64,000 bases of DNA from a virus. The stretch is taken from IMG/VR virus record IMGVR_UViG_3300023223_000630, positions 1 to 64,000 of that record; one strand, written 5' to 3'. Of the stretch, positions 39,009-51,278 are shown piece after piece (position 1 is the stretch's first letter; the number at the start of each line of letters is the position of its first letter). The position numbers were made by a program, and so were the translations under genes. Below the pieces are notes generated by a model. That model had not been told where the DNA came from. It made no database searches and saw only the letters and a program-made list of their open reading frames with translations.

Positions 39009-39572
39009 ATGCCTAACCACAACAAACAAAAAGGAACCAGGTACGAAAATGATTTTAAACACGCTTTGCAGATGTTATCCTTTGAGTGTATTAGGGCATA
39101 TTCATCCATTGGTACTGCTGATTTGATATTTAGTCCATCATGGAATTACAAAAAGAATTCCCGGACTTTATTAGTACAATGTAAGAATCAAAGAAATGAT
39201 GATTATCTATCCCCGTTTGAGAGAGCACACATTGATAATTTACAGCAAAGAAATGCCGGGATGGTAATAATAGCATTTAAAAGATCAACAAAATGTTTCA
39301 TTAAAATCTGGGAATCAAATGTAATACAAAGTTTTGAAGAGTTTGTACTAGAACAGTATGGAATATCATGTGAGTATTCAAAGTTATTAAAAAATTATAA
39401 TCAGCACAAGAGGCCAATTCATTTATATCCTTTAGAGAAAGAAATATATACAAAACAAGATGGAAGCCAGGGAGAAAAACCAATTGCTCCCTTTCAAGAT
39501 CTGTATGCAGTAGATGTATGGTATCCACATATCGGGGAACACTTTAATGAGGCATTCAATAACAAAAAGTAA
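39009..39572 (+). CDS. Holliday junction resolvase, archaeal Hjc-like (PD-(D/E)XK)
   Basis: KGTRYENDFKHALQMLSFECIRAYSSIGTADLIFSP...LLVQCKN fits Hjc (kG..fEr.....gf...R...S...D......l.vEcK). I prefer ATG 39009 because the track start 38952 lies inside a TATA-like tract. Confidence 0.6.
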   Translation: MPNHNKQKGTRYENDFKHALQMLSFECIRAYSSIGTADLIFSPSWNYKKNSRTLLVQCKNQRNDDYLSPFERAHIDNLQQRNAGMVIIAFKRSTKCFIKIWESNVIQSFEEFVLEQYGISCEYSKLLKNYNQHKRPIHLYPLEKEIYTKQDGSQGEKPIAPFQDLYAVDVWYPHIGEHFNEAFNNKK

Positions 39573-39784
39573 TGGAATTTTCCGGAACCTCATGGATATC
39601 TCATGTAAAGTACAATGAGGATACTAAAGCAATGTCAGTTACCATGAAAGGGAAAAGTAAAAATGTATATGAAATGTCAGATGTTCCATATGATGTATAC
39701 ATGGAATTTAAAAAATCCTCATCCCGTGGAACCTATTTTAATCGTAACCTAAAGGGTAAATATCAGCATGCGTTCTTCACCTAA
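39572..39784 (+). CDS. KTSC domain protein
   Basis: SWISHVKYNEDTKAMSVTMKGKSKNVYEMSDVPYDVYMEFKKSSSRGTYFNRNLKGKY matches the KTSC pattern (s.i..v.Y......l.v.f..g..Y.Y..VP..v...f..a.S.G.yfn..ik). Confidence 0.65.
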   Translation: MEFSGTSWISHVKYNEDTKAMSVTMKGKSKNVYEMSDVPYDVYMEFKKSSSRGTYFNRNLKGKYQHAFFT

Positions 39785-39856
39785 TGGTATAGTTACCATA
39801 GTATTAGGGTATAGTTACCACAAACACTTTTATTCCTATTATTATACAATATCATT

Positions 39857-39952
39857 ATGTTAAAATATAATACATGTATGTGCGGTGGTATCATATTCCC
39901 TACACAAAGACAATGTAATTTGTGTATTGAAAAACAAGTTAGATTAAGATGA
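39857..39952 (+). CDS. zinc-ribbon mini-protein (31 aa)
   Basis: MLKYNTCMCGGIIFPTQRQCNLCIEKQVRLR; ATGA overlap with the next gene. Confidence 0.35.
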   Translation: MLKYNTCMCGGIIFPTQRQCNLCIEKQVRLR

Positions 39953-40227
39953 TTAATCCAGATGACTTTAAGGTAATATGGTGTGGTAAAACACCCGGAA
40001 ATGGAACAAGGTTAAAGGAAGAACTAATGATATGTTATGATTTAAAACAAGCTATTATATCTGCAATAGAGGTATGTCATAAATATGCAGATAATATAGA
40101 TAATGGAGCAATAGAAAGATCTAGGCAGCTTGATAATGCTATTTTACTCCAGACGTTACTAGAACAATCCGGAATTCCTACACTAATTACTGACTTTAAT
40201 AAACCGGAGGATGTATTACCTAAATGA
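39949..40227 (+). CDS. hypothetical protein (92 aa)
   Basis: Track ORF; ends in the first CTAAATGACAG junction. Confidence 0.5.
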   Translation: MINPDDFKVIWCGKTPGNGTRLKEELMICYDLKQAIISAIEVCHKYADNIDNGAIERSRQLDNAILLQTLLEQSGIPTLITDFNKPEDVLPK

Positions 40228-40355
40228 CAGATAATTCAAAGAGTAACTTGACTTACTTAGACTTTGAAAATATTATGGCAGTAGTAGAACAATGTAATAT
40301 TGATGAGGGATTAACCGATAGTATTAGCCAAGCGTTAAAGGTGTTCACTAAATGA
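40224..40355 (+). CDS. mini-ORF s1 (43 aa)
   Basis: MTDNSKSNLTYLDFENIMAVVEQCNIDEGLTDSISQALKVFTK; begins and ends in the CTAAATGACAG junction. Confidence 0.4.
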   Translation: MTDNSKSNLTYLDFENIMAVVEQCNIDEGLTDSISQALKVFTK

Positions 40356-40498
40356 CAGATTTTACAGAATGTTACGAGAGGTTAGAAGAAGAAATTAAGG
40401 CTACTGAAAGTTTGATTTCAGAAGGCGATACAACCAATCTAACAATGACAGGTTATCTTGAAAATCTAAAATGGCTTAGAGGTGATTTGTCTAAATGA
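40352..40498 (+). CDS. mini-ORF s2 (48 aa)
   Basis: MTDFTECYERLEEEIKATESLISEGDTTNLTMTGYLENLKWLRGDLSK; same junctions. Confidence 0.4.
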   Translation: MTDFTECYERLEEEIKATESLISEGDTTNLTMTGYLENLKWLRGDLSK

Positions 40499-40650
40499 CA
40501 GTTCAGCCAAAGGGGAACGAGATGTGTAGTTGTGCTTGTCATGAATTAGAGGAAAATCATAGTCCTGAAGACTGTTATTGTATGAATGATAAATTACAAA
40601 ATAGTTTTGATAGATGGATTGATGAACAAGGGGGTCTTCTAACTGAATAA
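40495..40650 (+). CDS. mini-ORF s3 (51 aa), Cys/His-rich
   Basis: MTVQPKGNEMCSCACHELEENHSPEDCYCMNDKLQNSFDRWIDEQGGLLTE. Confidence 0.4.
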   Translation: MTVQPKGNEMCSCACHELEENHSPEDCYCMNDKLQNSFDRWIDEQGGLLTE

Positions 40651-40669
40651 TCAAACGGTTAGGAGTAGA

Positions 40670-40795
40670 TTGGGTGAATCATTCCCATATTCATCTTTAT
40701 TTAGAGTTAAAAATCCCCTTTATCTTGTAGCTACTTTAAACATGCTAACAATGTTTAGAGACCAGTTAATCGAAAGGAAAAACGGGAATGAGTAA
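40670..40795 (+). CDS. mini-ORF s4 (41 aa, TTG start after AGGAG)
   Basis: ...FRDQLIERKNGNE; AGGAG 5 nt upstream of the TTG; an internal ATG start is the alternative. Confidence 0.3.
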   Translation: MGESFPYSSLFRVKNPLYLVATLNMLTMFRDQLIERKNGNE

Positions 40796-40937
40796 GCCAG
40801 GAAGAATCTTAAACGATTCTTGGGTTTGCCGTTTAGGTTGTTATCATAATTTACATGATATTATATGTGATTGTAGATGTCATACAATACAAGGAAGATT
40901 TACAGGGCAACTTACAAAAGGGAGAAACGGTAACTAA
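40788..40937 (+). CDS. mini-ORF s5 (49 aa), Cys/His-rich
   Basis: MSKPGRILNDSWVCRLGCYHNLHDIICDCRCHTIQGRFTGQLTKGRNGN. Confidence 0.4.
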   Translation: MSKPGRILNDSWVCRLGCYHNLHDIICDCRCHTIQGRFTGQLTKGRNGN

Positions 40938-41044
40938 TGTATAAATGCCCTTGCGGATTACCATTTAAAGCATTAATTGATATGATTAATCATAAATTAA
41001 AAACAAAACATGATTTGCAAGTAACCGAAAGGAGAAACGGTTAG
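40937..41044 (+). CDS. mini-ORF s6 (35 aa), C2H2-like
   Basis: MYKCPCGLPFKALIDMINHKLKTKHDLQVTERRNG. Confidence 0.4.
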   Translation: MYKCPCGLPFKALIDMINHKLKTKHDLQVTERRNG

Positions 41045-41046
41045 TT

Positions 41047-41187
41047 ATGGTTTTATGTCCTTTTTGTTATGATGTAGAATTGAAATACATTAAATTTGAA
41101 AATGAGATTTATAGTTATGAGTGTCCCAGATTTGGGGATATATTAGAAATTAAGCTCATTACAAAACGAGGTAAGGGGAATGAGTAA
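41047..41187 (+). CDS. mini-ORF s7 (46 aa), zinc-ribbon-like
   Basis: MVLCPFCYDVELKYIKFENEIYSYECPRFGDILEIKLITKRGKGNE. Confidence 0.4.
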   Translation: MVLCPFCYDVELKYIKFENEIYSYECPRFGDILEIKLITKRGKGNE

Positions 41188-41363
41188 ATCACAATATCCG
41201 GGAACCCTAAAAAAATTCCATATGTAAAAAATGCAAGAAAAATCTTAATCATTTATCTGCAGACAACCAATGGTTACACGCTGAAATGTGTAGAAAACAA
41301 AATTCATTATTTGATTATGATATGGATAATGATTTAGATGGTATTAAAAAAATAGTATCATAG
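41180..41363 (+). pseudogene. mini-ORF s8 split by an A7 tract (frameshifted gene, recoding site or homopolymer error)
   Basis: ATG 41180 frame stops at 41225-41227. The zinc-finger body (..NSICKKCKKNLNHLSADNQWLHAEMCRKQ...IVS, to TAG 41361-41363) is in the +1 frame, which opens at 41211 inside AAAAAAA (41209-41215) and has no start codon. Confidence 0.35.
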
Positions 41364-41576
41364 CATATTGATTATTTCATCATCAGATAATTCATTCATT
41401 CTATATTCCCCGCCTTTACAGTATATATGAATATCACTCTGCTTTGATACATACCAAAGAAACACCGTAAATAGGAATAAGGGGATTCCCACTACGGGTA
41501 TGAGTAAAAGCAAGGAAGTAACCATTGGAATCAGAAATAACCTTCTTGCTCTTATCATGATAGTGTAATAGTACAA
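41358..41576 (-). CDS. small membrane protein (72 aa, 2 TM)
   Basis: LFLIPMVTSLLLLIPVVGIPLFLFTVFLWYV. Confidence 0.45.
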   Translation of the reverse strand: MYYYTIMIRARRLFLIPMVTSLLLLIPVVGIPLFLFTVFLWYVSKQSDIHIYCKGGEYRMNELSDDEIINML

Positions 41577-41635
41577 TAGTAATATAACTCTTTAGAAATT
41601 AGTACATTTATAATACTTCAATCCACGGTGGTATC

Positions 41636-41785
41636 ATGCCAACATGTACAATCTGTGATACATATCATAAAAGAAAAAGATCCTGGAATGTCACCTTTAA
41701 TATGTGCAGATCATGTTTATACATAATAGAATGGTTTAACTGGAATGGTAATTATTTAAAGTCATACCATGATAATACAGCTTGA
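41636..41785 (+). CDS. zinc-ribbon mini-protein (49 aa)
   Basis: MPTCTICDTYHKRKRSWNVTFNMCRSCLYIIEWFNWNGNY... Confidence 0.35.
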   Translation: MPTCTICDTYHKRKRSWNVTFNMCRSCLYIIEWFNWNGNYLKSYHDNTA

Positions 41786-50615: not shown

Positions 50616-50779
50616 GGTTTCTCCAATGATTTTCTTACTTGCATGTGAATTATATCCATATCTGGAACGATATTTACTATTTGATCAGCATCTATGTTTA
50701 ACATCTTAAAAAATTCAGTTCTATCTATTTCATATGTTGTTATTTTTTCATGTGTTTCAAATGAGGTTGTTAGTTTCAT
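50612..50779 (-). CDS. hypothetical mini-protein (55 aa)
   Basis: MKLTTSFETHEKITTYEIDRTEFFKMLNIDADQIVNIVPDMDIIHMQVRKSLEKP; ATGA overlaps at both ends. Confidence 0.45.
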   Translation of the reverse strand: MKLTTSFETHEKITTYEIDRTEFFKMLNIDADQIVNIVPDMDIIHMQVRKSLEKP

Positions 50780-51123
50780 GATTTCACCTTTATTGGTTCA
50801 TCCTCAAAGTATAATGATGTAATTTCATTGAAATATTTGTCACTTCCATGCAAGTATCTATCACACATTTCATCATATCGTGCTGCTTTAGCTTGTAATT
50901 CTTTTATTATATTGTCTTTATCTTCCAATTTTAACCATTCATCATGTATCTTTGCTTTTTCTTTTAATTCAATTAATTCCCTAACTGAATGTAAATTAAT
51001 TGCTTCACAAACTGTTTGATTCTCTAAAATTTCTTGTTTTTCTTCTTCTGTTACTGTAATTGAATATACAAATTTATCTTTACTAAATGCACCATTTGAA
51101 AATCTATCTTTAGTTAATTTCAT
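50776..51123 (-). CDS. hypothetical protein (115 aa)
   Basis: Operon member. Confidence 0.5.
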   Translation of the reverse strand: MKLTKDRFSNGAFSKDKFVYSITVTEEEKQEILENQTVCEAINLHSVRELIELKEKAKIHDEWLKLEDKDNIIKELQAKAARYDEMCDRYLHGSDKYFNEITSLYFEDEPIKVKS

Positions 51124-51278
51124 TCCCGTTTCTTTTTCCTATCTCTAAAGATAACATCAAAACCGTTTGTTAATGTGAATTTAGTTTCTTTTATATGATC
51201 TGTAATTAAATGATCTGAAAACTTTACAATAATATCTTCTAAACTAGATGCTAGTTTTTCATACTCTTTCTGATTCAT
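51120..51278 (-). CDS. hypothetical mini-protein (52 aa)
   Basis: MNQKEYEKLASSLEDIIVKFSDHLITDHIKETKFTLTNGFDVIFRDRKKKRE; ATGA overlap; first gene of the operon. Confidence 0.4.
   Translation of the reverse strand: MNQKEYEKLASSLEDIIVKFSDHLITDHIKETKFTLTNGFDVIFRDRKKKRE

Follow-up and report, generated by a model that had tools for sequence, protein, structure and literature searches.

Probable restart signals at the repeated junctions of a mini-gene chain in a virus of marine ammonia-oxidising archaea

Introduction

In archaea with leaderless leading genes, overlapping gene pairs are known to be translated by termination-reinitiation assisted by a Shine-Dalgarno (SD) motif, and such coupling is also known from bacteria (Huber et al., 2019, PMC6728339; follow-up study, PMC10666635). 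Two other described systems come close to the locus considered here. AFV1p06 is a small C2H2 zinc-finger protein of an archaeal virus (Guilliere et al., 2013, PMC3541406), and the PeSL promoter-terminator cassettes of T4-type phages bound swappable small open reading frames (ORFs; Arbiol et al., 2010, PMC2839356; PMC4122927). The present analysis concerns a block of chained mini-genes, located at about 39857 to 41363 of a 64,000-nucleotide (nt) stretch of IMG/VR record IMGVR_UViG_3300023223_000630 (hereafter, the window; all coordinates refer to it unless another contig is named). The record is that of a tailed virus of marine ammonia-oxidising archaea, roughly 65 kb in size, in which the block occupies the replication-side region. 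An initial annotation had described eight head-to-tail ORFs of 35-51 amino acids (aa), here called s1 to s8, linked by two recurring junction sequences. The chain is in fact longer, since two further ORFs, u1 and u0, also belong to it. As argued below, the block is probably a polycistronic chain of tiny accessory genes, the junctions of which would serve as SD and restart signals for termination-reinitiation.

Start Signals of the Virus and of the Mini-Gene Chain

Two patterns are seen at the starts of the long ORFs of the genome. In many genes the ATG follows a TATA-like box at a distance of about 25-33 nt and a purine-rich motif is lacking, and genes abutting an upstream gene are often preceded by motifs of the GGAG, GAGG or GGTG type. 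These patterns were counted genome-wide, excluding the block, a gene being considered internal when it lies at most 30 nt from the upstream gene. An SD motif (duplex energy of -6 kcal/mol or lower) was found before 15 of the 33 internal genes vs 6 of the 48 leading genes; conversely, 28 of the 48 leading genes but only 5 of the 33 internal genes have a TATA-like box. Duplex energies were scored against the general archaeal 16S rRNA 3' end, assumed to hold for the host. The combination of leaderless leading genes and SD-assisted internal genes corresponds to the archaeal pattern reported by Huber et al. (PMC6728339), and the predicted start signals of the virus fit this pattern, with putatively leaderless first genes and SD-assisted internal ones.

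Within the block, start and stop codons are closely packed. They overlap by 4 nt at u1/u0, u0/s1, s1/s2 and s2/s3, by 8 nt at s4/s5 and s7/s8, and by 1 nt at s5/s6; gaps of 2 and 19 nt are found at s6/s7 and s3/s4, respectively. A duplex scan identified, 4-11 nt ahead of the starts, the SD cores GGAGG (s1), AAGGTG (s2), GAGGTGAT (s3), GGGAG (s6), AGGAG (s7) and GAGGT (s8). Assuming the archaeal antiSD sequence mentioned above, duplex energies range from -7.1 to -13.3 kcal/mol at these six starts out of eight. Neither a TATA-like box nor a local inverted repeat was found at the junctions. Because SD motifs mark the internal genes of this genome and TATA-like boxes its leading genes, the junction motifs are best understood as SD cores combined with stop/start overlaps. 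The proposal of the initial annotation that they act at the nucleic-acid level, as reinitiation signals, thus gains strength from the purine cores, the overlaps and the SD enrichment at internal genes, and probably holds. Its further statement, that the motifs are complementary to the 16S rRNA 3' end, applies to the purine core and not to the AAACGG part.

The following mechanism can therefore be proposed for a chain that we consider likely to work by termination-reinitiation. Transcription from the TATA-like box ahead of u1 would yield a leaderless mRNA. In the sequence, each later cistron starts within a few bases of the preceding stop codon, through ATGA, ATGAGTAA, TAATG or the 2-nt gap, and at six of the eight starts the SD motif is contained in the 3' end of the preceding gene. 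By analogy with the established archaeal work, a ribosome finishing one cistron would restart on the next with the assistance of the SD motif. The repeated junction words would be copies of a few linker sequences spread along the chain, and the recurring basic, Gly-rich protein tails are in-frame readings of the purine-rich SD stretches.

Several points weigh against this proposal. Coupling of the cistrons is deduced from the geometry of the junctions. The SD motif of s5 is weak (AGGA, -4.0 kcal/mol) and u0 has none. Neither s4 nor s8 is intact, so that the chain is possibly interrupted, and a second promoter may lie inside 40690-40745. Finally, an SD core needs only 5-6 nt, and the exact words, 11-20 nt long and invariably in one phase, exceed what translation by itself would demand.

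Table 1. Features of the mini-gene block, in window coordinates
Feature	Position	Strand	Description
TATA-like box	39827..39835	+	Probable promoter for a leaderless transcript spanning several cistrons, ~30 nt ahead of the start of u1; motif and distance as at many leading genes
u1	39857..39952	+	Mini-ORF of 31 aa with CxC...CxxC, probably the first cistron; preceded by a TATA-like box and not by an SD motif
u0	39949..40227	+	92 aa; ATGA overlap with u1; GGAGG and copy 1 of CTAAATGACAG in its 3' end; score of 0.29 per codon, as usual for real genes
s1	40224..40355	+	43 aa, acidic, no zinc motif; gene-called; codon score 0.20
s2	40352..40498	+	48 aa, acidic, no zinc motif; gene-called; codon score 0.30; weak phrog_580 match (E 0.0013)
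s3	40495..40650	+	51 aa, CxCxCH-x5-H-x4-CxC; gene-called; homologue P0080
s4	40670..40795	+	Doubtful 41-codon TTG ORF; not gene-called; no homologue; ambiguous codon score (0.12)
s5	40788..40937	+	49 aa; belongs to a mini-protein family not yet characterised; gene-called; 13 relatives; dN 0 in codons 1-21 vs L013
s6	40937..41044	+	35 aa, C2H2-like (C-x-C-x12-H-x5-H); gene-called; sub-threshold PDB matches to C2H2 fingers
s7	41047..41187	+	46 aa, CxxC...C, zinc-ribbon-like; gene-called
s8	41180..41363	+	Disrupted: MSK ORF of 15 codons (41180-41227), then 41211-41363 in another frame, with CxxC...HxxxC and a codon score of 0.23
Class A junction, copy 1 (u0/s1)	40220..40230	+	CTAAATGACAG; TGA stop and ATG start overlap by 4 nt
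Class A junction, copy 2 (s1/s2)	40348..40358	+	CTAAATGACAG
Class A junction, copy 3 (s2/s3)	40491..40501	+	CTAAATGACAG
s4/s5 junction, class B	40772..40795	+	AGGA-type SD motif, AAACGG, then ATGAGTAA; 8-nt start/stop overlap
s5/s6 junction	40912..40939	+	GGGAG-type SD motif, AAACGG, then TAATG overlap; near-identical linker twice in L013
s6/s7 junction	41022..41049	+	AGGAG-type SD motif, then AAACGGTTAG, 2 nt, ATG
s7/s8 junction	41166..41187	+	GAGGT-type SD motif, then class B overlap
Degenerate s6/s7 junction copy at the s3 end	40640..40662	+	Family D6; 74% over 23 nt; AAACGGTTAG kept in phase

Repeated Words at the Junctions

In agreement with the initial annotation, the 11-mer CTAAATGACAG is exactly repeated at three junctions, starting at 40220, 40348 and 40491. 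A search of the 64-kb window shows that it is confined to these places (Table 1); from the base composition, about 0.04 exact copies were estimated to occur. The second junction motif recurs as described: GAAAGGA[AG]AAACGG is found at 40772 and 41027, GGGAATGAGTAA at 40784 and 41176, and GGAGAAACGGT at 40921 and 41031; also recovered were the protein tails that go with it (ERKNGNE, KGRNGN, ERRNG, KRGKGNE) and the MSK with which two of the proteins begin. A 12-mer containing ATGAGTAA occurs twice among the junctions. To put these repeats in perspective, 42-nt windows around start codons were compared. Exact shared words of at least 11 nt, measuring 11-13 nt, were found in 5 of the 36 pairs formed by nine junctions of the block vs none of the 325 pairs formed by 26 other internal junctions, where a single pair shares 10 nt. 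SD motifs and start codons by themselves would therefore fall well short of producing these repeats.

The word AAACGGTTAG occurs at 40653 and 41035. Its first copy had been placed outside any coding context; it stands instead one codon past the s3 stop, in phase with s3. The 23 nt that finish with this copy match the end of s6 at 74% identity; only the SD core is replaced, by a sequence that creates the s3 stop codon. We read this sequence as a putative decayed copy of an s6-type junction, in line with the possibility that s4 is a relic.

Two further sites resemble the junctions. At 41493-41568 (plus strand), an imperfect third copy of the class B junction is accompanied by a 22-codon MSK ORF, opposite a minus-strand ORF described below. 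At 51124-51145 (minus strand), in the start region of a 115-aa gene (50776-51123, minus strand), an AGGA-purine run followed by GAAACGGGAATG comes near the s4/s5 junction, so that linkers of this type are not entirely exclusive to the block.

Linkers and Genes of a Related Contig

On L013, a metagenome contig of 1,395 base pairs (bp), nine or more mini-ORFs of 28-43 aa follow one another in a chain, ahead of a larger gene with a TATA-like box of its own. Protein tails derived from SD sequences are seen in this chain too. The only gene clearly shared with the window is s5 (z 24.8). It is followed in L013 by a C2H2 ORF (781-903 of the contig) having its last residues and about 20 nt in common with s6, so that the order s5 then C2H2 gene is retained in both. 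A second ORF of L013 (505-615) encodes a C2H2-like protein of 36 aa in which, as in AFV1p06, a Glu takes the place of the fourth ligand His.

Linkers are shared more widely than genes. Close counterparts of the class A and class B overlaps are found in L013, words of 10-11 nt are common to this contig and to the s6/s7 and s7/s8 junctions of the window, and within L013 itself a 20-nt word containing AAAGGAGAAA occurs twice, with a 15-nt version a third time. In addition, all seven AGGAG-type linkers of the window and L013 are read in one phase, giving Arg/Gly then Arg/Lys. Because the same linker types recur in L013 and all seven of the AGGAG type are in phase, the comparison points to a descent of the putative linkers from a few ancestral copies. 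Other candidates were discarded. The contig L012 proved to be a chance match in a bacterial ABC-transporter locus, and the matches of a 20-nt linker pattern on two unrelated contigs were also taken as chance. A paired-junction pattern gave no match in IMG/VR.

The distribution of the linkers raises the possibility, suggested by the initial annotation, that the junction words are recombination sites. Mini-genes would then be gained, lost and reordered by homologous or microhomology exchange, and the block would be a swappable cassette array carrying its translation signals along. Exact islands of 11-13 nt flank interiors without detectable similarity. L013 possesses the 10-11-nt linker words of the window as well as its own identical 15-20-nt linkers, yet clearly shares only s5. 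The C-terminal tails of the s5 homologues are quite different, a possible s7-like gene stands before s5 in L013 and after s6 in the window (a similarity that is not significant), and a degenerate junction copy persists at the s3 end. On the other hand, at a synonymous divergence (dS) of about 1.1, as measured against L013, unconstrained flanks would look unrelated even without exchange; since this divergence is saturated, dissimilar flanks are no proof of exchange. Moreover, the right end of the s5 homology does not fall at a junction repeat, the order s5 then C2H2 gene is conserved, and the linkers were found neither in IMG/VR nor at ten related loci of greater distance. Sharing of linkers and mostly not of genes thus speaks for recombination points and the saturated divergence against them; we regard this explanation as tentative and, on balance, unlikely.

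The common phase of the AGGAG-type linkers also bears on the tails of the proteins (T-K/E-R-R-N and R-G-K-x-N-E types). These could be functional peptides, for instance basic nucleic-acid-binding ones, the likeness of the DNA resulting from selection on the protein. For independent copies able to adopt any phase, the probability of seven linkers in one phase would be about 0.001, and basic tails would suit zinc-finger DNA binders. However, common descent of the linkers accounts equally well for the shared phase. The s5 homologue of L013 (identical to P0081) stops directly after the zinc core, the tails are not conserved among the 14 members of the s5 family, ORFs lacking a zinc motif carry tails too, and the same words span the start codon and first codons of the next gene. 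Selection on the tails therefore appears improbable as the source of the repeats.

Integrity and Coding Status of the ORFs

Six of the eight ORFs first described (s1, s2, s3, s5, s6 and s7) are intact, were called by the gene caller of the source and have positive codon scores; s4 and s8 do not stand as such, the former being a doubtful ORF and the latter being split. The six gene-called mini-ORFs are singletons at 90% identity. For s4 to s7, the codon scores (0.08-0.13 per codon) fall where the highest-scoring spurious ORFs are also found.

The putative start codon of s4 is a TTG situated 19 nt past the s3 stop. This ORF could represent a gene in decay, or else a spacer; its 3' end provides the SD motif and the overlap for s5. 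The s4 stretch (40648-40805) can fold (z -2.07; 7 of 200 shuffles fold as well), with a 10-bp hairpin at about 40733-40760 and a long-range 8-bp stem in which 40679-40686 pairs with the s5 start region (40784-40791). The fold might be a gate on s5 translation, or might be due to chance.

In s8, the second frame has 50 open codons and no start codon before its zinc motif; deletion of one A from the A7 run at 41209-41215 fuses the two halves. An assembly error in the homopolymer, a fresh frameshift mutation or slippage are each possible causes of the break. The -1 frame is also open there, over 49 codons, with the codon score of non-coding DNA. Programmed frameshifting at the A7 run was considered and dropped: joining the frames takes a +1 shift, or one A fewer, and a homopolymer error or a mutation is simpler.

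Searches of PHROGs and Pfam with all mini-ORFs returned nothing significant, and blastn and tblastn searches against GenBank phages gave no match. No RNA family of Rfam was matched in the block, for which reason an Rfam-type RNA was dropped as an interpretation. The alternative of chance frames, in DNA that is non-coding or specifies an RNA, would agree with the low codon scores of s4 to s7 and with the lack of Pfam and PHROG matches, but it is refuted for s3 and s5 by conservation and purifying selection (see below). Since, in addition, six ORFs are gene-called, the ORFs, each with its start signal, tile the coding strand gaplessly and no Rfam match exists, we consider chance frames extremely unlikely.

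The Mini-Proteins s3, s5 and s6

Zinc-type Cys/His motifs, already noticed in the initial annotation, are carried by s3, s5, s6, s7 and the broken s8, at least. The best documented of these proteins is s5. Word-indexed and exhaustive searches identified 13 clusters of relatives of 33-75 aa at 50% clustering; in the exhaustive profile search, 13 small proteins matched at E values of 1e-5 or lower. The alignment of the 14 sequences contains nine invariant residues (W12, C14, G17, C18, H20, C27, C29, C31 and H32). Compared with its homologue of L013, s5 shows seven synonymous and no non-synonymous changes in codons 1-21 (non-synonymous divergence, dN, of 0; dS of 1.13), and a dN/dS ratio of 0.19 over 32 codons. 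No Pfam or PDB sequence match was obtained for this family. An AlphaFold model of s5 has a predicted local distance difference test (pLDDT) value of 67 and a small beta-sheet at residues 5-21, too weak to classify, and a fold search with this model gave no match.

The homologue of s3, P0080 (46 aa), is identical at 27 of 34 core residues and positive at all 34, the seven differences all being conservative. Because P0080 begins at the position equivalent to Met10 of s3, the true start of s3 may be the ATG at 40522, preceded by AAGGGGA, in place of the ATG that forms part of class A junction copy 3. The s3 family has no Pfam or PDB match, and a search of the ESM Atlas with s3 gave scores below 0.8. 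Neither the s3 nor the s5 family alignment found anything in IMG/VR or in 185,579 reference genomes. Taken together, the comparisons indicate that s3 and s5 at least are conserved protein-coding genes, with evidence of purifying selection in both; the dN/dS ratio of about 1 that would have spoken against these reading frames is not seen.

For s6, the ligand arrangement C-x1-C-x12-H-x5-H can be compared with the C2H2 pattern C-x2-4-C-x12-H-x3-5-H, and Tyr, Phe and Met occupy the positions where this pattern has a conserved hydrophobic core. Its best PDB sequence matches are C2H2 fingers, below threshold (E 0.015 and 0.14), and it has no Pfam match. The single-sequence AlphaFold model (pLDDT 70) consists of a loop then a helix and is too weak to classify. 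From its sequence, s6 looks like a C2H2-like zinc finger, and zinc binding is predicted. By analogy, the mini-proteins are most likely small nucleic-acid- or protein-binding regulators acting early in infection.

The initial annotation had seen in these proteins an expanding family. A young family grown by tandem duplication would be in line with the CxCxCH motif shared by s3 and s5 (p 0.013 before correction), with the repeated junctions and with the five Cys/His-rich products. However, once the 66 comparisons had been corrected for, Smith-Waterman scoring against shuffled sequences left no significant pair beyond the tails. Profiles of s3 and s5 align over CxCxCH only, with a probability of 15%, and the DNA interiors of u0, s1, s2 and s3 resemble one another only at the level of shuffled sequences. 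The ligand patterns differ as well, being C2H2-like, ribbon-like or CxCxCH. Outside the tails and the shared CxCxCH, proteins and DNA are thus unrelated; the idea of one paralogous family is largely refuted, the products of the chain appearing to be independent mini-proteins, and its origin by tandem duplication can be judged highly improbable.

Genomic Setting

The window represents nearly the whole of a 64,926-bp IMG/VR record with direct terminal repeats and 32% G+C. Directly upstream of the mini-gene block lies an 808-aa PrimPol-PriCT-MCM gene, the homologues of which are 40-48% identical and are borne by 60-68-kb contigs, one of them named Nitrosopumilus sp. at NCBI. The assignment to virus and host given above relies on the terminal repeats and these homologues. 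The MCM protein P0001 is 94% identical to that of the window. Single-protein searches with MCM and with a 206-aa neighbour gave no match in IMG/VR or in the metagenomes of the JGI; a search with the MCM alignment yielded ten loci at about 45% identity, in which neither mini-ORF homologues nor junction words are present.

Immediately before the block, at 39572-39784, a 70-aa protein with a KTSC domain is encoded (Pfam E 2.8e-12). In five related loci its homologues lie on the opposite strand relative to MCM, and this region has therefore been rearranged between relatives. On the other side, a hydrophobic ORF of 66 aa (41358-41558, minus strand) runs towards the end of the chain; a TATA-like box precedes its ATG by about 28 nt. 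The next unit of the plus strand, d1 (41636-41785), is a 49-aa CxxC...CxxC ORF behind a TATA-like box. Its promoter and start region (41609-41637) and a segment inside u1 (39866-39894) form a 29-nt direct repeat, 79% identical.

Comparison With Known Systems

If restart signals are indeed what the junctions are, the two-tier start logic of the hosts' relatives, with leaderless first genes and SD restarts, is also at work in a virus that infects an abundant group of marine archaea. Tails that tiny viral proteins appear to share can then arise as by-products of translation signals, which is relevant to the annotation and clustering of small viral proteins. The s3 and s5 families are conserved, uncharacterised Cys/His mini-proteins, small enough for direct structural and zinc-binding study. 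A bolder combination, which we find rather doubtful, would make the 11-20-nt linkers dedicated exchange points in a promoter-led, integron-like array kept by viruses of ammonia-oxidising archaea, where single mini-genes would be swapped between genomes with their own 3' linker and expressed on landing, and would also make the s5 family an undescribed zinc-binding fold with seven conserved ligands. Exchange at the linkers would, if true, be a simple means by which an expressed operon takes up new small genes.

Among known systems, the PeSL cassettes resemble the block by the presence of short conserved sequences at the borders of small, variable and mostly orphan genes, and they offer a model for exchange at repeats. 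However, a PeSL element is intergenic and consists of a promoter and a stem-loop terminator, whereas the junctions considered here have no promoter-like box or local hairpin, overlap coding sequence and carry signals for translation rather than transcription. With AFV1p06, s6 and the L013 ORFs 505-615 and 781-903 have in common a predicted single finger, a size of 35-40 aa and disordered-looking tails. They differ from it in that no significant sequence match exists, that s6 has one residue between its Cys instead of two to four, that the host is a mesophilic marine archaeon and not a hyperthermophile, and that zinc and DNA binding are here predicted.

The closest likeness is with the termination-reinitiation pairs of PMC6728339. 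As in these pairs, the genes are co-directed, are separated by 4- or 1-nt overlaps or short gaps, and have the SD motif inside the upstream gene; as in that lineage, leading genes would mostly be leaderless without SD motif and internal genes would use one. Unlike these pairs, the block contains at least eight chained, predicted cistrons of 31-92 codons, its junctions are identical over 11-13 nt and not merely similar, and 8-nt overlaps (ATGAGTAA) are found as well. The chain appears to be a tidy example of a known, ordinary arrangement, to which two uncharacterised mini-protein families are added.

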